From NCBI GenBank assembly GCA_001768975.1, contig MEND01000098.1:1-46103 (forward strand): 46,103 nt of DNA, read 5' to 3'. A program made the translations under genes and the position numbers. This DNA comes from Bacteroidetes bacterium GWA2_31_9 (GTDB taxonomy: Bacteria; Bacteroidota; Bacteroidia; Bacteroidales; GWF2-33-38). This document shows positions 14,045 to 43,116 of the stretch, one piece after another (position 1 is the stretch's first letter; the number at the start of each line of letters is the position of its first letter). The notes under the pieces are model-generated. The model saw only the letters and a program-made list of their open reading frames with translations, searched no databases and was not told where the DNA came from.

Positions 14045-14083
14045 CATTAGTAGTTGAAAAGATTAAATATTAAAATAACTTTT

Positions 14084-17000
14084 ATGAAAAAAATTTTCAA
14101 ATTAATGGTTATTGTTTTTTGCCTGTTTTTTGGCATTTCTAGAACAAATGCTCAAATAAACAATCTTGAAAAAATTAGTAAAGAAAATACGGAAAGTCAA
14201 ACTGTTTTAAAAAGTAATGAAACAGAAGTTAGGCGTATCCCTCGTAAAAAAGTTGAATCTAGCCCAGAGAAGGGTGTGGCAGAAACTAAAGAGAAAAAAA
14301 ACGATGAAAACAGCTCATTAACTGATAAAAAGTTTTCTAATGATTCACAATTAGAAATTACTGAACTAAATAAAAACATTCAAGCTCTTTCTAATGACGA
14401 GTGTTCAAATGCGCTTCCTATTGATGTTGTAAACTGTAGTTTAGCTTTTTATTATTCTTTCACAACAACAGGTGCAACAGCTTCCTCCGGAATTCCTGCT
14501 CCAGGTTGTGCAAGCTATTCTGGCGGAGACGTTTGGTTTAAAGTCGTTGTGCCAGCTTCAGGTCATATCATTTTTGATACATATGAGTATGATATCCTAG
14601 ATGGAGGAATGGCTATATATTCAGGAGATTGTACTTCTTTAACGTTAATTGAATGTGATGATGATGATGGGGTTGGATTAATGCCATATATTGACAGATC
14701 GGGTCTTACTCCTGGCTCTACAATTTATATTAGATTTTGGGAATATGGTAATAATGTAGCTGGCTACTTTTATTTAAGCATTTACGAGCCAGTGTCATCA
14801 ACATCAATTAATTTAAATGGGAATATGGGAACAGTAAGTGGTTGCTGTGTTGAATTATATGATAATGGCGGGACATTAGATTATGGGAACAATCAAAATT
14901 CCACAATAACATTTCAAACAACTGCAGGAAATAGGGTAAGAATGAGTATTTGGGATTTTGCAACAGAAAATGGGTGGGATTATCTTTGGATTTATGATGG
15001 ACCAAACACTTCAAGTCCATTAATGTTTAAATGGACAGGAATTCCTGCTTATATTCCAGATGCTGTTTCTTCAGGACAATACTTAACTGTCAAATTTACC
15101 TCTGACGGATCAGGTAAAGATGTTGGTTTTGCTGCTTATATTTTTTGCGAAGAGATTCCTCCTGCACCTGGTCTTTGTTCAGGAAATTCTCCTGCAAGTG
15201 ATAATTGTTCAAATTCAACACATATTTGTGATCCTAATCAATATTGTGGGAATACAAGTAGCTATTACACACCAGACCTTCCAGGAAATATGTGTAACGG
15301 ATGTGGTCTTTTTGGTGGAAGTATAGAAAATAATTCATGGATTTCTTTTACAGCAGCAGCAACAATAGCTACTTTACAATTTAATGTTACTAATTGTACA
15401 GATGCACTGGGAATACAATTTGGTATATATTCAGGGTCAAGCTGTAATAGCTTTACCTTACTCTCAAATGTTACAAATACTACAAATGCACAAATAGGTT
15501 CACAACAAATTTCTGCATCTGGTCTTACAGTTGGAAATACATATTATGTAATGGTAGATGGTTTTGCAGGTGATGTTTGCGACTATTCAATCACAGTAAT
15601 TGATGGAATAATGACAGGAACTGTTTCAGGAGATCAAACAGTATGCTATGGATCTACAGGAGTTACATATACAATGAATGCTATTGCTACTGGTTATAAC
15701 TGGTCTGTACCAACTGGTGCAACAATTACAGCAGGTTCCGGAACAAATACAATTACTGTAAATTGGGGAACAGCATCATCAGGTGATGTTGTATGTACTG
15801 CCAGTGCCGGAACTTGTGATGGGGCATCATCTACTTTAGCTGTTAATATTACTGTTCCTGCTACAGCATCTATTTCATATACAGGAACTCCATTTTGTAA
15901 ATCTTCTACATCGCAAACTGTTACATTAACAGGAACTGGAACATATACTGGTGGAACATATACAGCCAGTTCATCAAACTTATCAATTAATGGCACTACT
16001 GGCACAATAAATCCAAGTGCAAGTTTAGCTGGAACATATACTGTAACTTATACACTACCTGCAGTTGGTGGTTGTAGTACTATTATTGCAACAACTTCTG
16101 TAACAGTAAAACCTGCACTGACTGCTACTGCTACTGCATCAAATGTAAATTGCAACGGAGATGCAACTGGAGGTGTTTCTTTAACTCCTGGAGGTGGTAC
16201 TCCTAGTTATACATATAACTGGTCAAATTCTACAATTAGTCAGAATTTATCAAATGTTGTAGCTGGAGATTATTATGTTACTGTTACTGACGATAATAGC
16301 TGTACCGTTACAACTTCTGCAACTGTAACTCAACCTGCTTCAGCATTAACTGCTACAATAACTGGAAATAATCCTTCGTGTAACGGAAGTGCAAACGGCT
16401 CAGTTTCTGCTTCTGCTAGTGGTGGCACATCTGCATATTCATATTTATGGGATGATCCTGCTTTTCAAACAACATCTACTGCTTCAAATTTATTAGCAGG
16501 AACATATTCTGTAACTATTACAGACTTAAATGGTTGTAAATATTACGACAGTCAAGTTTTAAATCAACCATCTGCAATAACAATTACTGAAGCATCAAAT
16601 AATGATGCAACTTGTGGAAATGCTGATGGTAGTGCCTCAATTTCTGTTTCAGGAGGAACTTCTCCATATACTTATTTATGGACAGATGGCGAAACTTCAA
16701 ATTCAATCTCAGGAAAGCTCGCTGGCTCATATAATGTAACTGTTACTGATGCAAACTCTTGTTCAAATATTTTAGCTGTTGTAATAGGTAATGCAAGTGC
16801 TCCTGTTGCTAATTTAGATTCACAAACAAACATCTTGTGTAATGGTAATAATACAGGAAGTGCAACTATAACTTATTCTGGAGGAACCAGTCCTTATACT
16901 ATTATCTGGTCAAGTGGCGGAAACTCTACAACAGAATCTAATCTTATAGCTGGAAATTATTCTGTAACCGTAGAGGATGCTAATAATTGCCAAGCAACAG

Positions 17001-20000
17001 TTAATGTTACAATTACTCAACCGAATCCACTAAATGCACCTGTAACATCTCAAACAAATGTCAATTGTTTTGGAGAAAATAATGGTTCTGCTACAATTTC
17101 AGTAAGTGGTGGAGTTACACCATATTCTTATTCATGGTCGGCAGGAGGCTCAACAACAGCAACAAATGGTTCTTTAACAGCAGGAAACTATGATGTAACT
17201 GTTACTGATGCAAACAGTTGTACAAAGTTTACAAGTGTAACAATTACTGAACCATCTCAATTACTATCATCATTAAGTTCACAGACAGATGTAAATTGTA
17301 ATGGAGAATATAATGGCGAAGTAACTGTTACGGTAAGTGGTGGAACTTCTCCGTATAATTATGCGTGGTCATCAGGTGGTACAGGTTTAAATGAAACAGG
17401 TTTGAATGCTGGAACATATACATTTACAGCTACAGATAATCATGGTTGTACAACAAATTTATCTATTGATATTACTGAGCCACAAGCTTTAGCTGCTAGT
17501 GTTGCTTCGAGTTCAAATTTAACTTGTAATAGTTCAGCAGATGGGGATGTTACTATTAATGTTACTGGTGGAGTTACTCCATATACAATTTTATGGTCAA
17601 ATGGAAATACTGGTTTAAGTGACTCAAATCTTTCTGCTGGACTATATACTTTTACTGTAACTGATGCACATTCTTGTACTGATTCTGCTAGTGTAACATT
17701 AACAGAACCATTGATTTTAAATGCTGTAATATCATCTTATTCAGATGTTAACTGTAATGGGGGTAACGATGGCTCAGCAACAGTTATTGTTTCTGGAGGT
17801 ACAACCCCATATGCTTATAATTGGTCTAGTGGTGGTAACGGAGCTACTGAAAATAATTTATCATTCGGCACATATACAGTTACTGTAACAGATGTTAATA
17901 ACTGTGAGAACATTGTAACCGTTGATATTAATCAACCTGCAACACTTACATCTTCTATTGTAATTAATGACAGTATTAATTGTAATGGATTTAACAATGG
18001 TATATTGTCTGTTAACTATTCTGGAGGAACACCTCCATATAATATCATCTGGTCAAGTGGAGGGACAACTGATATTGAAAGTAATTTAGTTGCTGGCAAT
18101 TATGATGTTAGCATTACTGATGCCAATTTATGTACAACATCGGCAAGTATTAGCTTACCTGAACCTGAAGTATTAAATGCATCAATAATTGGAACAGATG
18201 TAAGTTGTAATGGAGGAAATGACGGTAGTGCCGATTTAACTGTAACAGGTGGAACTTCACCATATACATTTGAATGGTCAACTTTAGAAACAATCGAAGA
18301 TATTTCAGGATTGAATGCAGCTAACTTTGTAGTAACAGTTACAGACTATTATGGATGTATTGTAAATACTAATGTTAATATTAATGAGCCATCTGTACTA
18401 GCTTTAACACCAAGTTCAACCCAATCATCTTGTGGGAATACTGATGCAACTGCTTCAGTTACACCTTCTGGTGGTACAACTCCATATACCTACTTTTGGT
18501 CAAATTCTCAAACAACACAATCTATTTCATCTTTACCATCAGGGAGTTATTCTGTAACAGTTACCGACAACAATGGATGTAAAGATAGTCTTACAATTAG
18601 TATTAGCGATATGGGAGCTCCAGTAGCAGTTGCTACTGTTCAATCAAATGTTTCATGTTTTGGATATAACGATGGTTCTGCAACAGTTAATGTAACTTCA
18701 GGAAATAGTCCATTTACATACTTATGGAGCGATGCTTCTGCTCAAACTGACTCAATAGCAGTTTCATTAGTTGCCGACACCTATAGTGTTACAGTTTTTG
18801 ACGTGAATAATTGCAAAACAATAGAAACAATTACTATAACACAGCCTTTAGAGTTAATAAGTTCATATATAAAATCTGATGCCAGTTGTAATACTTTTAA
18901 TGATGGAAGTATTAATTTAACAGTAGCTGGAGGTATAACTCCATATTCATTTATTTGGGATGACATATTAAATTCAAATACTGAGGATTTGTCTGGCTTA
19001 ACTGCTGATAATTATAGTGTTACCATTACTGATGCTAATGGTTGTATCTCTAATTCTACTATTACGATAAATGAGCCAGACCAGATTATTGGGTCTATTG
19101 CTGTTACAAATGTAATTTGTAATAGTGGAAAAAATGGAGCTTTAGATTTAACTGTAACAGGTGGAACTAGCCCATATACATTTTTATGGAACGATTCTGG
19201 AAATAGTACTATAGAAGATTTAGTTGGACTACTAGCAGGAAATTATTCAGTCACAATTACTGATGCTAATAATTGCCAAACAATTGAAACTACAACAATA
19301 ACTGAACCTTCAGCAATTGTTTCAAATATTTCAGGTACTGATATCATTTGTTATGCTGGCACAAATGGTGCTGCTGACTTAACAGTTTCAGGAGGAACTA
19401 CACCTTATACTTTTTCTTGGTCAAATTCTGCTACTACTGAGGATATTTCTAATTTATCGTTTGGTAATTATTCTGTGAATATTTTTGATAATAATTTATG
19501 TTCAGCAACTGCAACTATTACCATTAATCAACCTACTGAACTTATAATTACTTTCAGTAATGTTGTAGATGCAATTTGTAGCGGAAACGGTGGTTCAGCT
19601 ACTGCCGATGTAACTGGAGGCGTTTCAGCATACACTTATGTTTGGGATTTTTATACAGGAAATCAAACTACTCAAACCGCATCAGGCTTAACATCAGGAA
19701 CATACCAGCTAACTGTAACTGACAATAATTTATGTACTGCAACAAATTCAGTTACAATAAATAGTTTAGCAGGAGGAACAGCAATCATAACTTCTTCAAC
19801 AAATAATAATTGCTTTGGAGATAAATTTGGTTCAGCAACAGCTTCCTTAACTATTGGTACATCTCCATACACTTATTTTTGGTCAAATTCTAATACTACT
19901 GCTACTGCAAACAACTTAACTGCAGGAACATATTCTGTAACTGTTACAGATGCAAACAATTGCGTTTCTAGCACATCAGTTACTATTTCAGAACCTACTG

Positions 20001-21193
20001 ACATAGAATTAACTACTACCCAAACACCTACCAGTTGTTATGGAGGTTCTGGTGGTACAGCAACTGTTTCTGCTACAGGTGGAACATTTCCATACAGCTA
20101 TTTATGGAATGATGCAAATAATCAGACTAATGTTACTGCAACAAACCTTACAGCAACAGGATATACCGTTACCGTTACTGACGCTCAGGGATGTACAAAA
20201 TCAGAAAACATTACAGTATTGAGTCCTGAAATGATTAACGTAACAGCATTTCCAACAAATGTTAAATGTAAAGGCTTTAATAATGGCGGAATTACATTAA
20301 CTGTAAATGGAGGCACTACACCATACTCATACAATTGGTCAAATGGAAGTAATTCGGTTACAATTATAAATCTTGCAACAGGAGTGTATTCAGCTACAGT
20401 AACTGATGCAAATGGATGTTCTGACACAAAAGAAGTTACAATAACAGAACCAGCGTCAGATTTACAATTTAATGTAACAACCGTTGAAGCTGATTGTTAT
20501 AATGGTGATAATGGCGAAGCAACAGTTAATGTTGTTTCAGGAACTTCACCATATACTTATATTTGGTCGGCAAACAATCAGACATCACAAACAGCAACTG
20601 GTCTTATTCCAAATAATTACTATACAGTTACAGTTACTGATTTTAATAGTTGTTTTTCTGTAGGAATAGTTAATATCGGTTCTCCTTCTCAAATTGAAAG
20701 AGTTGACTCTTTAACAACTATTAATAATACAAGTTGTATGGGAAGTATCGATGGAAGTATTTTCATAAAATACACTGGAGGAACATCTCCTTATTCATAT
20801 TATTGGAACAATGGAAAAACTGACGATAAAATTTATGATTTATCAATGGGAACTTATCTTATAACAATAACAGATTTTAATAATTGCGAATTGGTTGATA
20901 CGTTTGAAGTTGGAACTAATCCTACAAACTGCCTAGATATTCCAACTGCATTTACACCAAATGCTGATTCATACAATGATACTTGGGAAATAAAATATCT
21001 GTATTTATATCCAAATGCTTCAATAAAAGTATTTAATAGATGGGGACAGCTTGTTTATGATTGTAAAGATGGATGTAAACCATGGGATGGTACTCACAAC
21101 GGCAAACCTCTAGCTTTTGGTTCGTTTACATATATTATTGATTTGAATGATGGCACCGATCCAATTAACGGAGTAGTAACTTTAATTAAATAG
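14084..21193 (+). CDS. Giant SprB-like cell-surface adhesin (2369 aa): signal peptide, K/E-rich linker, Cys-rich beta domains, CUB-like domain, Ig/PKD-like domains, 21 SprB-type repeats, T9SS type-B CTD
   Basis: The track ORF begins at a TTG (14054). The ATG at 14084 gives a clean signal peptide, MKKIFKLMVIVFCLFFGISRTNAQ. C-terminus IPTAFTPNADSYNDTWEI..IKVFNRWGQLVYD..PWDGTHNGKPLAFGSFTYII is the type-B CTD pattern. Confidence 0.9.
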   Translation: MKKIFKLMVIVFCLFFGISRTNAQINNLEKISKENTESQTVLKSNETEVRRIPRKKVESSPEKGVAETKEKKNDENSSLTDKKFSNDSQLEITELNKNIQALSNDECSNALPIDVVNCSLAFYYSFTTTGATASSGIPAPGCASYSGGDVWFKVVVPASGHIIFDTYEYDILDGGMAIYSGDCTSLTLIECDDDDGVGLMPYIDRSGLTPGSTIYIRFWEYGNNVAGYFYLSIYEPVSSTSINLNGNMGTVSGCCVELYDNGGTLDYGNNQNSTITFQTTAGNRVRMSIWDFATENGWDYLWIYDGPNTSSPLMFKWTGIPAYIPDAVSSGQYLTVKFTSDGSGKDVGFAAYIFCEEIPPAPGLCSGNSPASDNCSNSTHICDPNQYCGNTSSYYTPDLPGNMCNGCGLFGGSIENNSWISFTAAATIATLQFNVTNCTDALGIQFGIYSGSSCNSFTLLSNVTNTTNAQIGSQQISASGLTVGNTYYVMVDGFAGDVCDYSITVIDGIMTGTVSGDQTVCYGSTGVTYTMNAIATGYNWSVPTGATITAGSGTNTITVNWGTASSGDVVCTASAGTCDGASSTLAVNITVPATASISYTGTPFCKSSTSQTVTLTGTGTYTGGTYTASSSNLSINGTTGTINPSASLAGTYTVTYTLPAVGGCSTIIATTSVTVKPALTATATASNVNCNGDATGGVSLTPGGGTPSYTYNWSNSTISQNLSNVVAGDYYVTVTDDNSCTVTTSATVTQPASALTATITGNNPSCNGSANGSVSASASGGTSAYSYLWDDPAFQTTSTASNLLAGTYSVTITDLNGCKYYDSQVLNQPSAITITEASNNDATCGNADGSASISVSGGTSPYTYLWTDGETSNSISGKLAGSYNVTVTDANSCSNILAVVIGNASAPVANLDSQTNILCNGNNTGSATITYSGGTSPYTIIWSSGGNSTTESNLIAGNYSVTVEDANNCQATVNVTITQPNPLNAPVTSQTNVNCFGENNGSATISVSGGVTPYSYSWSAGGSTTATNGSLTAGNYDVTVTDANSCTKFTSVTITEPSQLLSSLSSQTDVNCNGEYNGEVTVTVSGGTSPYNYAWSSGGTGLNETGLNAGTYTFTATDNHGCTTNLSIDITEPQALAASVASSSNLTCNSSADGDVTINVTGGVTPYTILWSNGNTGLSDSNLSAGLYTFTVTDAHSCTDSASVTLTEPLILNAVISSYSDVNCNGGNDGSATVIVSGGTTPYAYNWSSGGNGATENNLSFGTYTVTVTDVNNCENIVTVDINQPATLTSSIVINDSINCNGFNNGILSVNYSGGTPPYNIIWSSGGTTDIESNLVAGNYDVSITDANLCTTSASISLPEPEVLNASIIGTDVSCNGGNDGSADLTVTGGTSPYTFEWSTLETIEDISGLNAANFVVTVTDYYGCIVNTNVNINEPSVLALTPSSTQSSCGNTDATASVTPSGGTTPYTYFWSNSQTTQSISSLPSGSYSVTVTDNNGCKDSLTISISDMGAPVAVATVQSNVSCFGYNDGSATVNVTSGNSPFTYLWSDASAQTDSIAVSLVADTYSVTVFDVNNCKTIETITITQPLELISSYIKSDASCNTFNDGSINLTVAGGITPYSFIWDDILNSNTEDLSGLTADNYSVTITDANGCISNSTITINEPDQIIGSIAVTNVICNSGKNGALDLTVTGGTSPYTFLWNDSGNSTIEDLVGLLAGNYSVTITDANNCQTIETTTITEPSAIVSNISGTDIICYAGTNGAADLTVSGGTTPYTFSWSNSATTEDISNLSFGNYSVNIFDNNLCSATATITINQPTELIITFSNVVDAICSGNGGSATADVTGGVSAYTYVWDFYTGNQTTQTASGLTSGTYQLTVTDNNLCTATNSVTINSLAGGTAIITSSTNNNCFGDKFGSATASLTIGTSPYTYFWSNSNTTATANNLTAGTYSVTVTDANNCVSSTSVTISEPTDIELTTTQTPTSCYGGSGGTATVSATGGTFPYSYLWNDANNQTNVTATNLTATGYTVTVTDAQGCTKSENITVLSPEMINVTAFPTNVKCKGFNNGGITLTVNGGTTPYSYNWSNGSNSVTIINLATGVYSATVTDANGCSDTKEVTITEPASDLQFNVTTVEADCYNGDNGEATVNVVSGTSPYTYIWSANNQTSQTATGLIPNNYYTVTVTDFNSCFSVGIVNIGSPSQIERVDSLTTINNTSCMGSIDGSIFIKYTGGTSPYSYYWNNGKTDDKIYDLSMGTYLITITDFNNCELVDTFEVGTNPTNCLDIPTAFTPNADSYNDTWEIKYLYLYPNASIKVFNRWGQLVYDCKDGCKPWDGTHNGKPLAFGSFTYIIDLNDGTDPINGVVTLIK
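14807..15153 (+). other. CUB-like domain inside the adhesin
   Basis: GCCVELYDNGG..YGNNQNSTITFQT..GNRVRMSIWDFATENGWDYLWIYDGPNTSSPLMFKWTG..SSGQYLTVKFTSDGSGKDVGFAAYI follows the CUB layout: f-x-l-E..DYL-x-IYDG...l-x-v-x-F-x-SD-x-s...GF-x-a-x-Y. Confidence 0.55.
16115..20920 (+). repeat. 21 tandem SprB-type repeats (~76-78 aa each)
   Basis: I counted 21 units, from ALTATATASNVNCNGDATGG... to ...INNTSCMGSIDGS. Each carries C-x-G-x3-G-x-A, GGT-x-PY-x-Y-x-W and G-x-Y-x-V-T-(V/I)-T-D-x-N-x-C. Copies are diverged at DNA level. Confidence 0.85.
20921..21190 (+). other. T9SS type-B C-terminal sorting domain
   Basis: Same motif string as at 9385-9653: FTPN-x-D-x-(Y/Q)ND, NRWG, WDG, G-x-(F/Y)-x-Y-I. Confidence 0.8.
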
Positions 21194-21201
21194 TTAAGAT
21201 T

Positions 21202-22113
21202 ATGAAAACAAATATATTAATAATTATTATATGCTTTTTCAGCATAACATTGGTAAAAGCTCAGCAATTACCAATTTACAGTCAATATATGTTTAATAGC
21301 TTTTTGATAAATCCTGCTACAGCTGGAAGTGTTTCATATTTTCCAATAAGACTAACAGTTAGAGATCAGTGGGCTGGACTTAATCAATCACCAAGAACTC
21401 AAGCAATAAGTACACATGGTTTGTTAAATGGAAGAAGCGAAGCCGTTGGTGGATATATATTTAACGATAATTATGGACCCATAAGTAGAACAGGTGCATT
21501 AGTTGCATATTCACATCATTTAAGTATTGATAAGTATAGCTCAAAACTTGCTTTAGGTATATCAATTTCTGGTTTTCAGATTAAATTAGACCAAAGAGAT
21601 TTGAATTTAAATGATGATTATGACCCAATTATTTCAGGAGCAGTAGAACAAAAATTTATGCCAGATGCAGCATTTGGTGCGTATTATTATTCAGAGAAAT
21701 ATTATATTGGAGTTTCAGCCGCACAATTGTTCCAATTTAAAGTAAATTTAGGTGAAAATTCTACAAAACAGAGTTCTCTTGTTCGTCACTATTATTTTTT
21801 AGCCGGATATAATTTTGAAGTTTCTAAAGAAATAGATATTGAGCCTTCATTTTTGCTTAAACAAACAAAAGGAACTGCATTTCAGGGAGATATAAATGCA
21901 AGAGTTTATTATAAAAAAGATTACTGGCTTGGTATTTCTTACAGAACCAGCGATGCAATTATTGCCTTCTTAGGAGTTAAATATAAGGATTTTGTTGTAG
22001 GATATGCTTTTGATTATACCACTAGTGTTGTAGGTGATTATAGCAGTGGCTCTCATGAAATTATGCTTGGTTATAATCTAAAGGGTAAAAGCGGTGGTTC
22101 GAGGTTATTATAG
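21202..22113 (+). CDS. PorP/SprF-family T9SS outer-membrane protein, likely cognate partner of the second adhesin
   Basis: Signal peptide plus AQQLPIYSQYMFNSFLINPATAGS family signature. C-terminal ..SGSHEIMLGYNL. Starts 8 nt after the adhesin stop. Confidence 0.85.
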   Translation: MKTNILIIIICFFSITLVKAQQLPIYSQYMFNSFLINPATAGSVSYFPIRLTVRDQWAGLNQSPRTQAISTHGLLNGRSEAVGGYIFNDNYGPISRTGALVAYSHHLSIDKYSSKLALGISISGFQIKLDQRDLNLNDDYDPIISGAVEQKFMPDAAFGAYYYSEKYYIGVSAAQLFQFKVNLGENSTKQSSLVRHYYFLAGYNFEVSKEIDIEPSFLLKQTKGTAFQGDINARVYYKKDYWLGISYRTSDAIIAFLGVKYKDFVVGYAFDYTTSVVGDYSSGSHEIMLGYNLKGKSGGSRLL

Positions 22114-22433: not shown

Positions 22434-23987
22434 TTATTTAGGCTCTAACAATATTGCCGGAATAAGCATTTCTTCTAAAGATATTCCACCATGTTGGAAA
22501 GTATCTTTATAATACTTTACATAATGATTGTAATTGTTTGGATAGGCAAAGAAATCTGTATTCTGAGAAAAAATATAAGTTGAACTTACATTTGTAAGTG
22601 GAAGAAATACCTTTTGTGGCTGAGTTATTTCAAATACTTCTTTAGGATTATAACCTAAGCTTCGTCCTTGCTTATATCTAATATTAGTTGTAGTATTTCT
22701 ATCACCAATAACTTTTATTGCATTTTGAACTCTAACAGCTCCGTGATCAGTTGTTAAGAATAGGTTAATTTTATGATCTGATAATATTTTTATTAATTCA
22801 AATAAAGGAGAATGCTCAAACCAAGATAAAGTTAAAGACCTATAAGCGGCTTCGTCTTCTGCCAGCTCACGAATCATATCCATTTCTGTACGTGCATGAG
22901 AAAGCATATCTACAAAATTAAACACAATAATCGATAATTGATTTTGAAGAATATTACTAATATTATCAATTATTTTTTTTCCAGCTTTATTATTAAATAC
23001 CTTTTCATAAAAGAATTTATCGGTTAATCCATTTCTTGAGAGGTTTCTTTTTAGTAATTCTTCTTCGTGCATATTTTTGCCACCATCATCTTCATCATTT
23101 AACCAAATATCTGGAAATAATTTTTGAATTTCTGATGGCATAAGACCCGAAAACATTGCATTTCGAGAATATTGTGTTGCTGTAGGCAGAATACTACAAA
23201 AAACAGATTCTTCGGCTACATTATATACTTCTCTGAATTTGGGTTCAAGAATTTTCCATTGGTCTAGCCTTAAATTGTCAATTAATATTATTACAACTTT
23301 TTTGTCTTCTTTTAATAGTGGAAAAACTTTTGACTTGAAAACACTTGGCGATAATAAAGGTTTAATCGACTTATCATCAGAAAACCAAGAAACGTAATTT
23401 TTTTTGATGAATTTGGAAAATGCATTATTGGCTTCATTTTTTTGCATTTTTATTATTTCATCCATTGCATTGTTCCCAGAACGTTCAAGTTCTAATTCCC
23501 AAAAAATTAATTTTTTGTAAATATCTACCCAGTTGTCGAAAGAATATGACTCATTTATTTGCATACCAATTTGCATAAAATCAGTTTGATATGCAGATGT
23601 AGTTTTTTCTGAAATTAGTCTTTGATGATCTACATTTTTTTTAATTGAAAGAAGAATCTGATTTGGATTTACAGGTTTAATTAGATAATCGGAAATTTTT
23701 GATCCAATAGCTTGTTCCATTATATTTTCTTCCTCACTTTTAGTTATCATAACTATTGGAAGAGATGGGAATTTTCTTTTTATTTCATTAAGAGTTTGAA
23801 GCCCACTTATACCAGGCATATTCTCATCAAGAAATATTAAATCGTAAGTGTTTTTATTTACAATATCAATTGCATCTGTTCCATTATTTGCAGTATCAAC
23901 CTCATAGCCTTTTTGCTCCAAAAATAATACATGTGGCTTTAAAAGATCAATTTCATCATCGACCCATAACAATTTAATTTTTCTCAT
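22434..23987 (-). CDS. porX: T9SS response regulator PorX (REC domain + PglZ/alkaline-phosphatase-superfamily domain)
   Basis: N-terminal receiver KLLWVDDEIDLL...YDLIFLDENMPGISG...PIVMITK. The C-terminal 350 aa has PglZ-type motifs (VVIILIDNLRLDQW, FNFVDMLSHART, LFLTTDHGAVRV). About 517 aa, as in PorX orthologues. Confidence 0.85.
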   Translation of the reverse strand: MRKIKLLWVDDEIDLLKPHVLFLEQKGYEVDTANNGTDAIDIVNKNTYDLIFLDENMPGISGLQTLNEIKRKFPSLPIVMITKSEEENIMEQAIGSKISDYLIKPVNPNQILLSIKKNVDHQRLISEKTTSAYQTDFMQIGMQINESYSFDNWVDIYKKLIFWELELERSGNNAMDEIIKMQKNEANNAFSKFIKKNYVSWFSDDKSIKPLLSPSVFKSKVFPLLKEDKKVVIILIDNLRLDQWKILEPKFREVYNVAEESVFCSILPTATQYSRNAMFSGLMPSEIQKLFPDIWLNDEDDGGKNMHEEELLKRNLSRNGLTDKFFYEKVFNNKAGKKIIDNISNILQNQLSIIVFNFVDMLSHARTEMDMIRELAEDEAAYRSLTLSWFEHSPLFELIKILSDHKINLFLTTDHGAVRVQNAIKVIGDRNTTTNIRYKQGRSLGYNPKEVFEITQPQKVFLPLTNVSSTYIFSQNTDFFAYPNNYNHYVKYYKDTFQHGGISLEEMLIPAILLEPK

Positions 23988-34339: not shown

Positions 34340-36628
34340 CTATTTTACTTTTTCACCCACTAACTCTAAGCATTGAGAATATGTGATTTCTTCTGCTTTT
34401 AAGTCTTTAGGGATTTTAAAGTTTTTCTTTTTATAAGAAATATAAGCACCCCAGCGTCCTGCTAATACTTTAAGTTCTTTGTTTTCTGGAAATTCTTTAA
34501 TTGTTTTTTTCGATGCTTTATCAATTTTTTCAATTATAATTTCAATGGTTCGTTCAATAGTAATTGTCATTGGGTCGTCTTCTTTTCCCAGAGAATAAAA
34601 TCCACCATCATATTTAGCATAAGGACCAAATCGTCCAATTCCAATTGTAACAATTTTATCATTATAAGTTCCAACTTCTCGAGGCAATTTGAAAAGGCTT
34701 AAAGCTTCTTCTAATGTAATTGTTTGTATCAATTGACCTTTAAGTAAACTTGCAAATTTTGGTTTTTCTTCTTCGTTGTTTTCGCCAATTTGAATCATTG
34801 GTCCGTATCTGCCAATTTTTGCATAAACGGTTTTTCCATTTGGGTCTTCACCAAGAATTCTTTCCCCTTTTGCTTTTTCTGATACAGTTTGAGTATTATC
34901 AACTTTGGCATGAAAAGGTTTGTAGAATTTATCAATCATTTTTTGCCATTGCAATTTTCCTTCAGCAATTTCATCAAATTCGGCTTCTACTGAAGCTGTA
35001 AAATTATAATCTAATATATCGGCAAAATATTCTACTAAAAAATCATTTACAACGATTCCAATATCTGTTGGAAAAAGTTTAGATTTTTCTTTTCCGGCAG
35101 TTTCTGTTTTAACCTCTTCTTTTAAAGATTTTCCGGTAAGAGTTAACATATTGTAATTACGATCAACACCTGTGCGGTCTTCTTTAATTACATAACCACG
35201 ATTTTGAATTGTTGAAATTGTTGGAGCATAAGTAGATGGTCTTCCAATTCCCAAGTCTTCCATTTTCTTAACTAGGCTAGCTTCTGTATATCTTGCTGGA
35301 TAATGTGTATATTTTTCGGTTGCTGTAATTTTTTTACAATTTAATTCGGCACCTTTTAATAATTCAGGTAATAGAGTTTCGTCGTTTTCTTCTTTTTCTT
35401 CATCAGTTGATTCGAGATAAACTTTAAGAAAACCATCAAATTTTAATACTTCACCAGATGCTACAAATTTTTCTTTTTGATTTGAGATATTAATATTAGC
35501 TGTAGTTTTTTCAAATTTAGCATCGCTCATTTGAGATGCCAAAGTACGTTTCCAGATTAAATCGTATAGTCTTTGCTCGTTTGAGGGTCCGGTAATATTT
35601 TTATTCGATAAATATGTTGGTCTAATTGCCTCGTGAGCTTCTTGAGCACCTTTACTTTTAGTTACAAATGTTCTTTTATGAGCATAGTTTTCACCAAAAG
35701 AGGATTTTATTTCGCTAAGTGCTGCTGCAACTGCCGATTCTGCTAGATTTAATGAGTCAGTTCTCATATAAGTAATATGACCTGCTTCATATAATTTTTG
35801 TGCAACAGTCATTGTTTGTGAAACAGAAAATCCCAATTTTCTTCCAGCTTCTTGTTGTAAAGTAGAGGTTGTAAATGGTGGAGCTGGTGATTTTTTTGAA
35901 GGTTGAGTAACTACGTCATCTACATTGAAAATGGAATCTTTACATTTTTCCAGAAAGTTTTTAGCATCATCTTTCGATGTGAATTTTGTATTTAATTCGG
36001 CTTTAAATTCTTTTTTTGCTTTATCTGTAGAAACTGTAAATATTGCTATAACCCTGTATGATGATGTTGAATTGAAAACTTGAATTTCTTTTTCTCTTTC
36101 AACAATTAATCTTACTGAAACAGATTGAACACGTCCAGCAGATAATGCTGGTTTTATCTTTTTCCATAGTAGTGGAGATAATTCAAATCCAACAAGTCTG
36201 TCCAATATTCTTCTAGCTTGTTGAGCATCAACAAGATCTTTGTTTATTTTTCGTGGATTTGCAACAGCTTTTTTAATAGCTTCTTTTGTAATTTCGTGAA
36301 AAACAATTCTTTGAGTTTTTTCTTGTGGAATTTTCAATGCTTCACATAAATGCCATGAAATTGCTTCTCCTTCACGGTCCTCATCGGAAGCAAGCCAAAC
36401 AACTTTTGCTTCTTTTGCATATTTAGTCAATTCAGTTACTAACTTTTTTTTGTCGGCAGGAACTTCATAAATAGGTTCATAGTTTTTATCTATTTTAATA
36501 CCATTCTCTTTTTTTGATAAATCTCTAATATGACCAAAACATGATTTTACTAAAAAATCTTTTCCTAAAAATGTTTGAATTGTTTTGGCTTTTGCAGGGG
36601 ACTCAACTATTACTAAATTTTCTTCCAT
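34340..36628 (-). CDS. topA: DNA topoisomerase I
   Basis: Toprim N-terminus LVIVESPAKAKTIQTFLG..., EGEAISWH, active-site tyrosine context GHITYMRTDS. About 762 aa. Confidence 0.95.
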   Translation of the reverse strand: MEENLVIVESPAKAKTIQTFLGKDFLVKSCFGHIRDLSKKENGIKIDKNYEPIYEVPADKKKLVTELTKYAKEAKVVWLASDEDREGEAISWHLCEALKIPQEKTQRIVFHEITKEAIKKAVANPRKINKDLVDAQQARRILDRLVGFELSPLLWKKIKPALSAGRVQSVSVRLIVEREKEIQVFNSTSSYRVIAIFTVSTDKAKKEFKAELNTKFTSKDDAKNFLEKCKDSIFNVDDVVTQPSKKSPAPPFTTSTLQQEAGRKLGFSVSQTMTVAQKLYEAGHITYMRTDSLNLAESAVAAALSEIKSSFGENYAHKRTFVTKSKGAQEAHEAIRPTYLSNKNITGPSNEQRLYDLIWKRTLASQMSDAKFEKTTANINISNQKEKFVASGEVLKFDGFLKVYLESTDEEKEENDETLLPELLKGAELNCKKITATEKYTHYPARYTEASLVKKMEDLGIGRPSTYAPTISTIQNRGYVIKEDRTGVDRNYNMLTLTGKSLKEEVKTETAGKEKSKLFPTDIGIVVNDFLVEYFADILDYNFTASVEAEFDEIAEGKLQWQKMIDKFYKPFHAKVDNTQTVSEKAKGERILGEDPNGKTVYAKIGRYGPMIQIGENNEEEKPKFASLLKGQLIQTITLEEALSLFKLPREVGTYNDKIVTIGIGRFGPYAKYDGGFYSLGKEDDPMTITIERTIEIIIEKIDKASKKTIKEFPENKELKVLAGRWGAYISYKKKNFKIPKDLKAEEITYSQCLELVGEKVK

Positions 36629-36839
36629 CTGTATTTATTTTAAAGCCACAAAATAAAGCAATTACAAATCGCTCTGCAAATTTTTAATTTTTTAAATGTA
36701 TCAAGCAGATGTAAAAACAATATTTTACACATTTGTATTCGATTGAAAATAAGTTTTTTAAGTTGTGTTAAAATTATTATTTAAAAGTTAAAAGAATTAA
36801 TTTTTGACCATACAATATTATTATATACTTAAAATTTCC

Positions 36840-36847
36840 TATCTTTG
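36840..36847 (+). promoter_or_regulatory. Candidate -7 box TATCTTTG upstream of sufC
   Basis: Exact TAnnTTTG match, 27 nt before the ATG at 36875. The nearest TTTG upstream (36803-36806) is too far for a canonical -33 element. Confidence 0.3.
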
Positions 36848-36874
36848 TTCTTATTTAGATTAAATACATATAAG

Positions 36875-37624
36875 ATGCTTAAGATAGTTGATTTACACGC
36901 AAATATTAATGAAAAAGAAATTCTTAGAGGAATAAATCTTGAGATTAAAGCTGGTGAGGTTCATGCTATTATGGGACCAAATGGTTCAGGAAAAAGTACA
37001 TTAGCAGCTGTTTTAGCAGGGCGAGAAATTTTTAATGTAACTAAAGGAGAAGTTATTTTTAATGGTAAAAATCTTTTAGAACTGAGTCCAGAAGATAGAG
37101 CAAGAGAGGGAATATTTCTTGGATTCCAGTACCCAATTGAGATTCCGGGAGTGAGTATGGTAAGTTTTATGAAAACTGCTGTGAACGAAGCCAGAAAATA
37201 TAAAAACCTTCCTGCTTATTCTTCTTCAGATTTTTTGAAATTAATGCGTGAAAAAACAGCATTAGTTGAAATTGATTCAAAACTAACAAATAGGTCTGTA
37301 AATGAAGGTTTTTCGGGTGGTGAAAAAAAGAAAAACGAAATTTTCCAAATGGCAATGCTTGAGCCAAAACTTGCAATTCTTGACGAAACCGATTCAGGAT
37401 TAGATATTGATGCTTTACGAATAGTTTCAAATGGCGTAAACAAGCTTAAGAACAAAGACAATGCAACTGTTGTTATTACTCACTATCAAAGACTTTTAGA
37501 TTATATTGTGCCTGATTTTGTTCATATTTTATATAATGGAAGAATTGTAAAATCGAGCGGAAAAGAACTCGCATTAGAGCTTGAGGAAAGAGGATACGAC
37601 TGGATTAAAAAAGGAGAGGTTTAA
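36875..37624 (+). CDS. sufC: Fe-S cluster assembly ATPase SufC
   Basis: MLKIVDLHANI... N-terminus from the ATG at 36875 (the track's TTG at 36845 adds 10 unlikely codons). Walker A GPNGSGKST, signature FSGGEKKKNE, Walker B LAILDETDSGLD, H-loop ITHY. Confidence 0.95.
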   Translation: MLKIVDLHANINEKEILRGINLEIKAGEVHAIMGPNGSGKSTLAAVLAGREIFNVTKGEVIFNGKNLLELSPEDRAREGIFLGFQYPIEIPGVSMVSFMKTAVNEARKYKNLPAYSSSDFLKLMREKTALVEIDSKLTNRSVNEGFSGGEKKKNEIFQMAMLEPKLAILDETDSGLDIDALRIVSNGVNKLKNKDNATVVITHYQRLLDYIVPDFVHILYNGRIVKSSGKELALELEERGYDWIKKGEV

Positions 37625-37655
37625 GAATGTTTGTTAGTTTGTTTTATGACATTAT

Positions 37656-38288
37656 ATGATGTTAAAAGAGCTTGTAAAAAAAATATCATTTTTTAAAGAT
37701 TCTGAATATTTTCAATCAGGTTTATTGCGTTCGATTAAAACCGAAACAAAATTATTAGAAGAAAGAACGATAGTAAATAATTTTTTGTCGCTATTAATTG
37801 ATTCTAAATTTGATTATGATTTTATTCTTAGTATTTTGTTTTCAGAACTTTATATGAATATTTGTCAACATTCGGAATCTGAACAATCGTTTTATTATTT
37901 TTCAAAATGCAATTCAGAAAATTCGATTGAAATTATATTTTTTGACACAGGTGTTGGAATTCCAAATAAAATTCGAGCATACTATAAAAATAAAACTTTT
38001 GAAAGCGATTCTGAGTGTATCGAATTTGCGTTACAAAACGATGTTACAACTAAAAGCTTTATTCAAAATTATGGAAGAGGTTTAGATAATGTAAAATCTT
38101 GTATTTCTTCATATTGTGGAGAATTTCAGATTTTTTCTGGAAATGGTAAATTTTCTTTTGATGGAACAAAATATATAAAACGTTCGTTATCAAAAAAAAT
38201 AAACGGAACAATGGTTTTTATTAAAATCAATTTAAATAATCTTACAATTAAGCAAGATAATGATTACTCAAATGAATTAACTTTTTAA
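37656..38288 (+). CDS. Small stand-alone GHKL (Bergerat-fold) ATPase/kinase-like protein, RsbW/SpoIIAB-like layout
   Basis: N-box SELYMNICQHS (E64..N67..H72), G1 box FFDTGVGIP (D97xGxG101), G2 box NYGRGLDNV (G140xGL), in canonical order within 210 aa. No TM, DHp or sensor domain. Confidence 0.6.
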   Translation: MMLKELVKKISFFKDSEYFQSGLLRSIKTETKLLEERTIVNNFLSLLIDSKFDYDFILSILFSELYMNICQHSESEQSFYYFSKCNSENSIEIIFFDTGVGIPNKIRAYYKNKTFESDSECIEFALQNDVTTKSFIQNYGRGLDNVKSCISSYCGEFQIFSGNGKFSFDGTKYIKRSLSKKINGTMVFIKINLNNLTIKQDNDYSNELTF

Positions 38289-38289
38289 T

Positions 38290-39111
38290 ATGATAATTCG
38301 AGTTGTTGATATTACAAATGATTATTATTCAGGAATATCTGGATTAAAGGTTGGGAAGTATATAGATAAAGCAATCTTAGATAATCCTGAAACAGCTATC
38401 TCTGTTTCATTTTATGGGATAGAATCAATTGCACCATCGTTTGTTAATGGAGCATTATTATACATCGTTGATTTATATGGAGTAGATTTTTTTAAATCAA
38501 AAATTAAAATTATTGAGGTATCAAGCAAAGTTCAGTTTTTAATTAAGGATAATGTTTTAAAATATTTTGATTTTAAAAATTCATTTATGCAACAATTAAA
38601 AGCCAAGAATTTTTATTTAGCAATTGATGGAAGTAATGAAAGTGAAAGCATTAAACAGTATTTAAAGAATCTGAATAAATCGGAATCTTTAAACATTAAT
38701 TTTAATAATGATTTTATAGATTCTAATAGGATTAAACAATATATTAAAAATACAGACTGTGTAATATTTATATTGTCGGAAAAAAATTATTCCAATATTA
38801 TTTTAGAGTTGTTATCAGTAGCTATTCAAAATAATTTACCTTGTATTTTATTAATAAAGAAGGGTGTTTATATTAATTTAACAGAGAGAGAAAAAGATAA
38901 GGTTTTTATCTCTAGATTTGATAATAAAAATATTATAAAATCAATCAGGGATATTAATGAAATAGTATTAAAAAATAATATAAACTCGCCAAATATTCAA
39001 AAAGCTCAATTAAAAAGATCAAAAAATACTGAACCCATAATTTTTTGGTCAGCTTTAGCTTTTTTAGCAAATCTTTTGTTTAGTAGCATGTTAGTTAAAA
39101 GTAAAAAATAA
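38290..39111 (+). CDS. STAS-like (DUF4325-type) domain, then a TIR-like/Rossmannoid domain and a C-terminal TM anchor
   Basis: aa 1-95 show the DUF4325-like pattern (GLKVGKYIDKAIL..AISVSFYGIESIAPSFVNGAL..). aa ~107-228 show alternating beta/alpha elements (FYLAIDG, ESIKQYLKNL, DCVIFILSEKNYSNIILELLSVAIQNNLPCILLIKKG). aa 249-268 form a hydrophobic helix, IIFWSALAFLANLLFSSMLV. ATG lies 1 nt after the upstream stop. Domain calls come from pattern reading only. Confidence 0.45.
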   Translation: MIIRVVDITNDYYSGISGLKVGKYIDKAILDNPETAISVSFYGIESIAPSFVNGALLYIVDLYGVDFFKSKIKIIEVSSKVQFLIKDNVLKYFDFKNSFMQQLKAKNFYLAIDGSNESESIKQYLKNLNKSESLNINFNNDFIDSNRIKQYIKNTDCVIFILSEKNYSNIILELLSVAIQNNLPCILLIKKGVYINLTEREKDKVFISRFDNKNIIKSIRDINEIVLKNNINSPNIQKAQLKRSKNTEPIIFWSALAFLANLLFSSMLVKSKK

Positions 39112-39123
39112 TAATCAATTTAT

Positions 39124-40491
39124 ATGTCGGAAGTAGTTGAAAAAAAAGATATTAAATCGCAATATTTAGAACTCTTCAGTGAAAATATTGATAAAATATC
39201 TAATGTATCATCTTCAATAATAAATAAATTCAGAAATCAAGCCATTAAAGATTTTGAAAAGTTAGATATTCCGAACAAAAGGAATGAAAATTATAAATAT
39301 TTAGATTTAAAAACCGCTTTCGATAATAAATACAATTATAATTTTATTCAAAGTAAAATACAGGTTAAGCTCGAAGAGGTTTTTCGTTGTGATGTTCCAG
39401 AAATGGATACCGAAAGTATTGTTCTTATAAATGGATGGTACGGAAATAAAACAAATTTACTTCAAAAGGTTGAGGGGAAAGCTATTATTGGAAGTTTTTC
39501 GGAAGCAGCAAAACAATATCCCGATTTATTTGAGAAGTATTATTCGAAATCGAAAAATATTGAAAAAGAAAGTTTAGTTTCTCTAAATACCGCATTTGCA
39601 GGCGATGGCATTTTCTTTTATGTGCCAGATAATATCGTGCTTGAAAAGCCAATTCAAATTATCAACTTGATGGTTAGCGAAGAAGATACTTTTGCTCAAC
39701 CACGAAACTTATTTATTCTTGGAAAAAACAGTCAGGCTAAAATTATAGTTTGCGACCACACTTTATCGGCAAGTAAATTTCTTTCAAACTCAGTTACAGA
39801 AGTTTTTCAGGAAGAAAATTCGGTTTTTGATATTTATAATCTTCAAAACGAGCATAATGGTGCATCGAAAGTGTCTTCTGTATTTTTCAATCAAAGCAAT
39901 AAAAGCACATTATTATCAAACATTATTACTCTTCATGGCGGAGTTGTCAGAAACAATGTTTATGTAAATGTTGATGGCGAACATTGCGAAAGTAAGCTTT
40001 ATGGACTTTATTTGTCAGACAAATGGCAAAACATTGATAACTATACTTATGTGTCGCATAATAAGCCAAATTGCAATAGCAGCCAATTTTATAAAGGAAT
40101 ACTTGACGATGCATCAATAGGTGCTTTTAATGGAAAAATTTATGTTAGCAGAGAAGCTCAAAAAACATCTGCTTATCAGGCAAATAATAACATTCTGTTG
40201 ACAAATGATGCAAAAGTTAATTCCAAGCCTCAACTAGAAATTTATGCCGATGATGTTAAATGTAGTCATGGAGCAACTTCTGGTCAAATTGATGAAAATG
40301 CGTTATTTTATTTACGTTCGAGAGGAATTTCCGAAAAAGAAGCAAGATTCCTGTTGTTATATGCTTTTACAAACGAAATAATTAAGGAAATTAAAGTAGA
40401 AGCTTTAAGAGATAGAATTAGTAATTTGGTTGATAAACGTTTACGAGGAGAATTAGCACGTTGCAATAGCTGTGTAATTAATTGTTGTTAA
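39124..40491 (+). CDS. sufD: Fe-S cluster assembly protein SufD
   Basis: About 455 aa. C-terminal beta-helix region with SufB/D family motifs (KPQLEIYADDVKCSHGATSGQIDENALFYLRSRGISEKEARFLL). Confidence 0.9.
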   Translation: MSEVVEKKDIKSQYLELFSENIDKISNVSSSIINKFRNQAIKDFEKLDIPNKRNENYKYLDLKTAFDNKYNYNFIQSKIQVKLEEVFRCDVPEMDTESIVLINGWYGNKTNLLQKVEGKAIIGSFSEAAKQYPDLFEKYYSKSKNIEKESLVSLNTAFAGDGIFFYVPDNIVLEKPIQIINLMVSEEDTFAQPRNLFILGKNSQAKIIVCDHTLSASKFLSNSVTEVFQEENSVFDIYNLQNEHNGASKVSSVFFNQSNKSTLLSNIITLHGGVVRNNVYVNVDGEHCESKLYGLYLSDKWQNIDNYTYVSHNKPNCNSSQFYKGILDDASIGAFNGKIYVSREAQKTSAYQANNNILLTNDAKVNSKPQLEIYADDVKCSHGATSGQIDENALFYLRSRGISEKEARFLLLYAFTNEIIKEIKVEALRDRISNLVDKRLRGELARCNSCVINCC

Positions 40492-40652
40492 ATTTTTTTT
40501 GAAGCAGATTATTTTATAAATTTACATATAAATTAATCGTAATAGTTTTAACAACTAAACAGTTTGAACAATTATTTAATTGAACACACAAGTGTACTTC
40601 TACAAGAATTTTAGTGGAAATTAATGATTTTAGAAAATAAATAAATTTCAAA

Positions 40653-40895
40653 ATGAGCACTTTAGACCTTAAAAGAAACTTACATTTATTGATAGATAGT
40701 ATTGATAATGAAAATCTTTTGTTGAATTTTTATAACTTAATGAAAACTCGTACTTCATTAAATGAAGGTAAGTTATGGGAAAAGCTATCTGAACAGGAGC
40801 AAAATGAATTACTATTAGCATTTGAAGAAAGCTTTGAACCTGAAAATTTGATTTCATTAGAAGTAATGAAAAAAAAACATGAAAAATGGCTTTAA
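40653..40895 (+). CDS. Putative antitoxin (small acidic helical protein) of a ParE/RelE-type TA pair
   Basis: 80 aa. Overlaps the downstream toxin gene by 10 nt (ATGGCTTTAA). N-terminus LDLKRNLHLLIDSIDNENLL is typical of small Bacteroidota antitoxin partners. The family is not identifiable by eye. Confidence 0.5.
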   Translation: MSTLDLKRNLHLLIDSIDNENLLLNFYNLMKTRTSLNEGKLWEKLSEQEQNELLLAFEESFEPENLISLEVMKKKHEKWL

Positions 40896-41188
40896 TAATA
40901 AAATTGTCGAAAAGAGCAGATATAAAATTTGATAAAATTCTAGATTATTTATTATTAGAGTATGGTGAAGAGAGCACTAAAATATTTGTGAAAAAAGTTT
41001 ATAATTTTCTTGAGGTTTTATCAGAATTTCCTGAAATAGGAACAATTGAAAATAGAGAAAAAGGAATCAGAAGTTTTACAATTATAGAACAAATAAATGT
41101 TTTTTATAGGATTGAAAATGAGAAAATTATTATACTAACTTTTTTTGACAACAGACAAAATCCAAAAAAGAAAAGTAAAATAATTTAG
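40886..41188 (+). CDS. Type II toxin, RelE/ParE superfamily
   Basis: 100 aa. LSKRADIKFDKILDYLLLEYGEES..FPEIGT....IRSFTI.E.INVFYRIENEKIIILTFFDNRQNPKK follows the ParE-like toxin pattern common in Bacteroidota. Confidence 0.7.
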   Translation: MALIIKLSKRADIKFDKILDYLLLEYGEESTKIFVKKVYNFLEVLSEFPEIGTIENREKGIRSFTIIEQINVFYRIENEKIIILTFFDNRQNPKKKSKII

Positions 41189-42498: not shown

Positions 42499-43116
42499 AT
42501 GGCTAAAGTCTTAGTTACTGAGGAAAAATTAAATTTTGCTATCGAATATTTCAATGAGCTTAATGAAAAAGAATACATTAAAATATTGAATGATTTTCAG
42601 AAAGAACAAATTCATTTGAGAGATTATTTACAAGAATTAAATGCTGGTTTTGAATTAGACAGTGAGCTTTTTGACGATGTAATGGACATGACATTAATTA
42701 TTTGGAAAGCATTTAAGGATTCTAATAATAATGTTTTCCCGATTGTAACTGACGATATTATTGACCAAGTTGAGATAGAGGCTGAAAATGCAGATAATGA
42801 ATTAGCCAAATCGCTCGGAATAAATTTGGATGACGAGAAGGTTGATTTATCGAAACTTAAAACAATAAACGACAAGTTTAAAGCTGGTGACGTTGATAGT
42901 CCTGAAGAGCTTTTAAAGTTGATTGAAAAAAATAATTTGGGAGATTTTCTGAAAAAATCGGAAGGTTCGCACACAGAAAATCAGGAAGTTTTGACTGATT
43001 TTGTTTACGAAGAAGTGTATTCGATGGAAGATATTGAAGCCGTTGATGCATCGGCATGTTGTGATATTTTGTTTGATGTAATAAAGTGTTTTGATAAAAC
43101 AATAAATAAAAAATAA
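42499..43116 (+). CDS. Hypothetical highly acidic protein (205 aa) nested between sufS and sufE
   Basis: Long ORF on the operon strand, 11 nt after the sufS stop and ending 2 nt before the sufE ATG. D/E-rich. C-terminal Cys cluster DASACCDILFDVIKCF. No family recognised. Confidence 0.55.
   Translation: MAKVLVTEEKLNFAIEYFNELNEKEYIKILNDFQKEQIHLRDYLQELNAGFELDSELFDDVMDMTLIIWKAFKDSNNNVFPIVTDDIIDQVEIEAENADNELAKSLGINLDDEKVDLSKLKTINDKFKAGDVDSPEELLKLIEKNNLGDFLKKSEGSHTENQEVLTDFVYEEVYSMEDIEAVDASACCDILFDVIKCFDKTINKK

Follow-up and report, generated by a model that had tools for sequence, protein, structure and literature searches.

The suf operon of Bacteroidetes bacterium GWA2_31_9, as found in contig MEND01000098.1 (GCA_001768975.1), raises the question of what two tightly packed open reading frames (ORFs), here called ORF A and ORF B, are doing between sufC and sufD; the window hereafter denotes the whole 46,103-nt stretch that was analyzed. 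An original prediction, made from the letters of the sequence, had taken the two products for a GHKL ATPase and a tail-anchored protein with STAS-like and TIR-like parts, and had proposed an abortive-infection or stress-triggered toxin module. Comparison with relatives and with known systems identifies the pair as an accessory element of the suf operon and as a rare variant within the GHKL-kinase/STAS-substrate class (CapKS and VapKSC). On balance, the data favor the view that it is a phospho-switched toxin or abortive-infection module, namely a self-contained two-gene unit of a GHKL kinase and its STAS substrate. The logic of a kinase plus a STAS protein is already described (CapK/CapS and VapK/VapS/VapC); what is undescribed is the fused output, comprising a TIR-like domain and a transmembrane (TM) segment, and the N-terminally short kinase. 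The coordinates of all features are collected in Table 1.

CapK (helix-turn-helix (HTH)-STAS-GHKL) is switched on by single-stranded DNA (ssDNA) and phosphorylates a conserved Ser of CapS, which consists of a STAS domain and a winged helix-turn-helix (wHTH), whereupon the CapS dimer dissociates; CapS itself acts as a regulator rather than as a toxin (Chambers et al., EMBO J 2026, PMC13373217). In VapKSC, phosphorylation of the antitoxin VapS by VapK frees the PIN toxin VapC, which results in protection against phage (PMC13373217). The N-terminal STAS domain and the GHKL domain of CapK/VapK together form the ssDNA-sensing groove, and a TIR domain or TM output is not mentioned in the same study (PMC13373217). 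Transcriptional coupling of PIN.4 VapC genes to DUF4325 genes was noted in an older survey (PMC5499597). Searches of the available literature on DUF4325, and on partner switching combined with anti-phage terms, yielded no description of the ORF A/ORF B architecture.

ORF A encodes, by homology, the core of a VapK/SpoIIAB-like GHKL kinase. Its Bergerat boxes occur in the canonical order (N-box E64/N68/H72, G1 D97-x-G-x-G101, and G2 G140-R-G-L143) and are invariant in eight family members; E64, H72, G1, and G2 had been read correctly in the original prediction, whereas the N-box Asn had been placed at position 67, which is a Met. The match to Pfam HATPase_c (E 5.7e-4; 20.7 bits) falls under the gathering cut-off of 26.4, and those of the seven ORF A homologs tested are all sub-threshold too (E 2.8e-5 to 0.18). 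When the family profile was compared with the PDB, 19 of 19 matches were GHKL proteins (CheA, SpoIIAB, and HK853; E 0.035-0.24). The AF2 model is of low confidence (pLDDT 53.5 and pTM 0.57, from an alignment of three sequences); with this low-confidence model, the top 16 Foldseek matches were all SpoIIAB, UsfX, RsbW, or CheA-P4 (E from 1e-3), with target-normalized TM-scores of 0.54-0.69 for the anti-sigma kinases and 0.33-0.48 for CheA P4. The GHKL assignment is supported most strongly by the match to phrog_3364 of the PHROGs (E 1.6e-30), in which aa 50-199 correspond to profile positions 141-294 of 304. As a positive control, a GHKL–STAS-like–PIN operon was located with the VapS sequence on plasmid P5 of Deinococcus gobiensis, and its 300-aa “ATP-binding protein” (VapK-like) matches phrog_3364 over the full length (E 1.4e-41); the ORF A family aligns with this kinase as well (hhalign 94.8%, E 5e-8). 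The phrog_3364 and PDB profile matches and the conserved boxes bear out the earlier description of ORF A as a stand-alone GHKL protein of the SpoIIAB/RsbW type.

The partial coverage of phrog_3364 further implies that ORF A is a VapK-like GHKL core without its N-terminal domain. Just 49 residues lie ahead of the matching region. Homologs of ORF A occur in two forms: the short ones (192-215 aa) cover only phrog_3364 positions ~115/141 to 295, and the long ones (281-282 aa; L009 7143-7988 and L012 4339-5187) cover positions 6-295. The copy in the window is of the short form, which is without the N-terminal domain (~110-140 aa) that full-length VapK-like proteins have, and the 31-nt gap to sufC is too small for a longer ORF A. 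The STAS identity of the N-terminal extension in the long homologs is read solely from the full-length phrog_3364 coverage, and comparison of this extension with the DUF4325 profile gave no significant match (probability <1%).

The AF2 model of ORF B (pLDDT 77, pTM 0.70) has three parts, namely an N-terminal domain (aa 1-102, pLDDT >90), a five-stranded α/β domain (aa 105-228), and a disordered linker that leads to a C-terminal helix. The first of these parts is, according to its homologies, a VapS homolog. ORF B matches Pfam DUF4325 (PF14213) at the borderline (E 7.5e-5; 22.8 bits, the cut-off being 23), and PF14213 matches are precomputed for five of its homologs. The N-terminal domain also matches phrog_9989 (E 7e-10); a profile built from this domain and stand-alone DUF4325 proteins matches Escherichia VapS (PDB 9Z7O_A) with an E-value of 1.3e-9, the Deinococcus VapS-like protein (hhalign 98.7%), and, marginally, CapS (9Z71; E 0.49). 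The Pfam and VapS matches agree with the DUF4325-type STAS-like module foreseen at the start of the protein. The most conserved feature of the whole ORF B family is P49-S50-F51-x-N53-G54, in which S50 (codon 38437-38439) does not vary within the family and hardly varies among DUF4325 proteins. This residue lies at the start of helix 49-63 in the model and, by analogy with characterized substrates, is a candidate phospho-acceptor.

The likeness to VapKSC (PDB 9Z7O) extends over both genes: ORF A and the VapK-like kinase of a GHKL–STAS–PIN operon both belong to phrog_3364, the DUF4325 domains share a conserved Ser where helix 2 begins, and a kinase gene is followed by a tightly coupled STAS gene in a mobile cassette resembling toxin-antitoxin (TA) loci. 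By contrast, no PIN/VapC gene stands beside ORF A/ORF B, the ORF A product has no N-terminal STAS (ssDNA-sensing) domain, and in ORF B the STAS part is joined in cis with a TIR-like domain and a TM segment, whereas VapS has a short inhibitory tail. CapK-CapS (PDB 9Z71-73) shares with the pair a GHKL kinase and a STAS substrate with a C-terminal output domain; however, this output is wHTH in CapS and TIR-like plus TM in ORF B, ORF A has neither the HTH nor the STAS domain of CapK, and the gene downstream of the pair is sufD instead of an immune operon.

The middle domain of ORF B is, judging from profile comparisons, TIR-like and homologous to stand-alone proteins comprising a TIR domain and a TM segment (TIR+TM). 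An exhaustive hidden Markov model (HMM) search of 1.84 billion representatives returned ~22-26 full-length relatives of ORF B and ~12 further proteins (150-173 aa) that match only its C-terminal half. The latter, stand-alone TIR+TM proteins of ~155 aa, begin with “MKVFISYS..D”; among ten of them compared with Pfam, TIR_2 was matched in eight, in two of these above threshold, and ThsB_TIR was also matched in one. Residues 100-232 of ORF B, from which the TM segment is excluded, align with the TIR part of these proteins (hhalign 99.2%, E 3e-19), and a W-x-LLG...L pattern in the tail is common to both groups. The single C-terminal TM helix that had been predicted is recovered as well, with a Kyte-Doolittle 19-residue maximum of 1.94 and a model helix at 253-268. 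It is from profile-profile homology that the TIR assignment derives, not from a structural match: a direct Pfam TIR match is lacking for ORF B, and no TIR structure occurs among the top 50 Foldseek matches of the whole model, which gave weak generic Rossmann-like matches (SIS, nucleoside 2-deoxyribosyltransferase (NDT), DNPH1, BcmB, and receiver domains).

The original prediction had gone further and considered the middle domain a possible effector, TIR-like or deoxyribosyltransferase-like, acting on NAD or nucleotides, with E173 as a candidate catalytic Glu; in the full form of this model, an active effector would be released by the kinase. The homology to TIR_2-positive proteins speaks for such an effector, since the near-invariant Glu of the TIR+TM proteins aligns with the catalytic Glu of the plant TIR motif “WCLDE” (7XOZ and 5TEB), and Glu also occupies this canonical position in ~5/30 members of the ORF B family. 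However, the canonical position is L174 in the window's ORF B and Gln in most members, and E173 is the preceding residue, which is K, A, or other in homologs. The βA motif “FISYS” is replaced by “AIDGS” in ORF B, and members of the wider family do not conserve the “DGS” that follows strand 1. Because the canonical Glu position is L174, a canonical NADase activity of ORF B is unlikely on sequence grounds. The deoxyribosyltransferase part of the proposal draws on the matches to the N-glycosidases NDT, DNPH1, and BcmB, which are weak (E 5e-3 to 1e-2; target-normalized TM-scores 0.62-0.71). NDT and DNPH1 need a nucleophilic Glu after strand 4, and no conserved acidic residue follows the corresponding strand (185-190) in the ORF B family, on which ground an NDT/DNPH1-like identity was rejected. 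With the TIR-like half of the assignment supported and the deoxyribosyltransferase half and the catalytic E173 discarded, an active NAD+ or nucleotide effector seems improbable, as the absence of Pfam TIR and Foldseek TIR matches for ORF B would also suggest.

The TIR+TM proteins themselves have a different partner. In the three loci inspected, the stand-alone gene, in which the Glu is conserved, is directly preceded by an overlapping gene for a ~170-aa Mrr_cat-like protein (L022 5489-6459; L024 5492-6486; L026 4498-5465), whereas the partner of ORF B is a kinase. These Mrr_cat/TIR+TM pairs are situated amid GmrSD, HEPN, SNF2, HerA/DUF87, AbiEii, and McrBC genes, and look like a separate candidate two-gene defense module that shares its TIR+TM part with ORF B. 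The TIR+TM module is reused with another partner in defense islands. Unlike ThsB of Thoeris, ORF B has no ThsA-like partner.

The association of the two genes is constant. Co-occurrence, which the original prediction had proposed as a check, was found in 8/8 distinct genomic contexts, in each of which an ORF A homolog lies directly upstream of an ORF B homolog, overlapping or at most 12 nt apart. These contexts are (1) the suf operon of the window and of its close relative L015; (2) an M16 peptidase gene before the pair and HEPN+MNT after it; (3) the pair followed by XisH/XisI, an AAA_15/21 ATPase, CYTH, and Fic; (4) a divergent gene for an extracytoplasmic function (ECF) sigma factor before the pair and NADAR ... 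HerA after it; (5) A2M before the pair and Uma2 ... SLFN_AlbA_2 after it; (6) PRTase before the pair and GH92 ... TIR-FGE-sulfatase after it; (7) HSDR_N_2-N6_Mtase overlapping the start of the kinase gene; and (8) the pair with Cas9 within ~3.5 kb. A metagenome scan with an eight-sequence alignment gave four loci. Neither the window nor any of the eight contexts contains a PIN gene. Outside suf, homologs of the pair often stand beside TA, restriction-modification (R-M), or Cas genes, whereas the neighborhood in the window is of a housekeeping type and no defense island.

These contexts bear on a second explanation, in which the pair performs non-lethal partner switching: a membrane-tethered STAS protein would sequester or release a GHKL anti-sigma factor or switch whose target is encoded elsewhere, and the TIR-like domain would serve as a scaffold or for oligomerization. 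SpoIIAB/RsbW anti-sigma factors are the best structural matches of ORF A, which carries the N, G1, and G2 boxes and is predicted to share their minimal GHKL fold, and a STAS-like partner whose Ser lies at the N-terminus of a helix recalls SpoIIAA and RsbV. The ECF sigma factor adjoining one homologous locus, the lack of the catalytic Glu in the TIR-like domain, as would suit a scaffold, and the regulatory nature of CapS point in the same direction. By contrast, the cassette contains no sigma factor or PP2C phosphatase gene and moves as an isolated two-gene unit to unrelated loci without a conserved third partner. Furthermore, its DUF4325 domain is not a canonical STAS domain and is joined to a membrane anchor and a TIR-like domain, and the nearest sequence relatives are of the phage-associated VapK/VapS type (phrog_3364 and phrog_9989), not housekeeping RsbW/RsbV. 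The cassette is accessory and mobile, and its presence varies among close relatives, which is atypical for core regulators. Partner switching without a lethal output is accordingly unlikely, albeit clearly more credible than an active NAD+ or nucleotide effector.

The remaining explanation is that the location itself is meaningful, i.e., that the pair has a housekeeping role in Fe-S metabolism, such as tying Fe-S assembly to a signal of stress or from the membrane. The two genes lie on the strand of sufC and sufD and are tightly packed with them, with gaps of 31 nt between sufC and ORF A, 1 nt between the TAA of ORF A and the ATG of ORF B, and 12 nt between ORF B and sufD; coordinates, strand, and spacing are as originally claimed. 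No terminator-like site flanking the pair was found in a scan of the window, in agreement with the earlier view. A sigma-70 promoter scan is uninformative in this AT-rich DNA; the sole well-placed copy of the Bacteroidota-type -7 box (TAnnTTTG), at 36840, lies upstream of sufC, with which the suf cluster of this lineage begins, and counts of this motif are otherwise at chance level. Since no terminator flanks the pair and the only well-placed -7 box precedes sufC, cotranscription with suf is the simplest reading; the cassette, which has no evident promoter of its own, is probably transcribed together with sufC-sufD. The arrangement is also kept in L015 (~88% identity).

The comparative data nevertheless largely refute a suf role, which can be regarded as very improbable. 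In L016 (Bacteroidetes bacterium GWA2_30_7, ~84% nucleotide identity), the sufD protein of which is 89% identical to that of the window, sufC is directly followed by sufD at a distance of 51 nt and the pair is absent. Collinearity in blastn breaks exactly at the cassette, with L016 3246-5958 corresponding to window 34920-37634 and L016 5999-7782 to window 39122-40904. A more distant relative, L017, has the canonical order sufB-C-D-S, again without the pair. The suf location is confined to the lineage of the window, and none of the seven other contexts involves suf genes. The earlier statement that the pair is no part of conserved suf biology is thereby confirmed. The 3′ part of the sufC-sufD spacer in L016 weakly resembles the 3′ end of ORF B, and the difference from L016 may have arisen by insertion or by deletion; terminal direct or inverted repeats were sought at the segment boundaries, which gave chance AT-rich matches only.

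A second accessory cassette in the same operon, consisting of an antitoxin-like ORF and parE (product versus ParE_toxin: E 5.6e-9), also varies among close relatives: it is absent from L015 (site 7338-7360), where the ORF A/ORF B pair is present, and in L016 (7531-7790) the antitoxin and the first five parE codons (MALIL) are fused ahead of sufS. The occurrence of this variable cassette implies that the suf spacers behave as insertion sites, and the three configurations among relatives imply that both spacers are variable sites for accessory cassettes. The ORF A/ORF B cassette is probably mobile by horizontal transfer. For annotation, ORF A and ORF B should not be counted as suf components, and the suf spacers should be viewed as variable sites for selfish cassettes. 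The composition of the pair, which had been described as visibly more AT-rich than the suf genes, agrees with this description: ORF A has a GC content of 0.237 and ORF B one of 0.227, versus 0.30-0.33 for the suf genes, and no coding DNA in the window other than these two genes and parE (0.221) reaches such low values. GC at third codon positions (GC3) is host-like in ORF A and ORF B (0.14-0.16), which means that their AT-richness reflects amino-acid composition and not codon usage.

The analysis shows the domain homologies, the pairing of the two genes, and the accessory nature of the cassette; trigger, phosphorylation, and effector action are inferred, in a scheme that may run as follows. 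ORF A would bind the DUF4325 domain of ORF B and phosphorylate S50, by analogy with S58 of SpoIIAA, S54 of CapS, and S48 of VapS. Phosphorylation might alter the self-association or autoinhibition of ORF B, and the membrane-anchored TIR-like domains could then assemble and cause growth arrest, as an abortive-infection or toxin-like output. The trigger may differ from the ssDNA of CapK/VapK because ORF A is without the ssDNA-sensing N-terminal domain. Similarly, since the catalytic Glu is missing from ORF B, assembly or membrane perturbation, or scaffold signaling, would be a more likely output than NAD+ hydrolysis. It is tempting to speculate in more specific terms on an undescribed system in which a VapK-like kinase without a sensor acts through a STAS phospho-switch to gate the assembly of a membrane-bound, non-NADase TIR-like domain, leading to growth arrest; this detailed version is possible but decidedly tentative. 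If true, bacterial TIR-like domains would have a new effector mode, non-NADase assembly at the membrane, and the pair would be the first case of a CapS/VapS-type phospho-switch that directly gates a covalently attached effector.

Several observations weigh against a phospho-switched toxin or abortive-infection module. The CapK/VapK sensor domain is missing from ORF A, and the phosphorylated S48 of VapS aligns with P49 of ORF B, so that the conserved Ser is offset by one residue (PSF in ORF B versus SPF in VapS). The TIR-like domain has no strictly conserved polar residue across the wider family. The surroundings of the cassette in the window are housekeeping genes (gldK-N of the type IX secretion system (T9SS), PorP/SprF and giant ORFs, topA, and suf) and no defense island, and the association of homologs with defense neighbors is anecdotal, drawn from eight contexts and not set against a statistical background. 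Phage and plasmid collections, probed by tblastn with ORF B, and a scan of viral contigs yielded no copy. PADLOC-DB v2 gave no match for either protein at E <= 1, and NCBIfam gave none; the PADLOC result agrees with the original view that this is no named defense system, whereas its kinase/STAS logic is known from CapKS and VapKSC (PMC13373217).

If the pair is indeed a module of this type, the same GHKL/STAS switch that serves immune operons in CapKS and a PIN toxin in VapKSC would be extended to a third output, a membrane-anchored TIR-like domain fused in cis. A third output type would support the idea that the switch is a general plug-in regulator for conflict modules. With only two genes, the pair also lends itself to studies of how phosphorylation of a STAS domain controls an effector joined to it and of what a TIR-like domain without the Glu does.

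Table 1. Positions of the cassette, its predicted domains, and flanking features in the window.
Feature	Position in product	Coordinates	Strand	Basis or remark
sufC, ABC ATPase		36875..37624	+	ORF and translation; L015 ortholog with ABC_tran; upstream flank of the cassette
Cassette of ORF A and ORF B, 1,487-bp segment		37635..39121	+	Present in the window and L015, absent from L016
ORF A, 210 aa		37656..38288	+	Predicted VapK/SpoIIAB-like GHKL Ser-kinase core
ORF B, 273 aa		38290..39111	+	Predicted DUF4325, TIR-like, and TM parts
DUF4325/VapS-like STAS-like domain	ORF B aa 1-102	38290..38595	+	Pfam, PHROG, PDB profile, hhalign, and model
TIR-like five-stranded α/β domain	ORF B aa 105-228	38602..38973	+	Profile-profile homology to TIR+TM proteins
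Predicted C-terminal TM anchor IIFWSALAFLANLLFSSML	ORF B aa 250-268	39037..39093	+	Lys/Arg-flanked; hydropathy and model helix
sufD		39124..40491	+	L015 ortholog with SufBD_N and SUFBD_core; downstream flank of the cassette
Second accessory cassette		40653..41188	+	80-aa antitoxin-like ORF (40653-40895) and parE (40886-41188; 100-aa toxin), between sufD and sufS

Some further features of the window deserve mention. Within the coding sequence of ORF B, a terminator-like hairpin with a T-run occurs at 38388-38409; two such sites were found, in line with the 1.4 expected from shuffled sequence. A SpoIIE/PP2C-domain protein (705 aa) and a Response_reg-PglZ protein are encoded at 11203-13320 and 22434-23987, respectively, and no link was found between the PP2C gene, ~24 kb away, and the cassette. 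The suf cluster opens with sufC beside a divergent topA (34340-36875), and sufB is absent from the window, in which tblastn with the SufB of L017 (L017 3716-5179) matches only the paralogous sufD. Between sufS and sufE, a 205-aa acidic ORF (42499-43116) has a weak match to DUF488-N3i (E 0.004), and L016 has an ORF of 210 aa at this position (9021-9653). Two giant ORFs, at 108-9656 (3182 aa) and 14054-21193 (2379 aa), have an unusually high GC content at second codon positions (GC2 ~0.5), and each is followed by a PorP/SprF gene (9658-10680 and 21202-22113), with which it probably forms a pair of T9SS cargo and shuttle.

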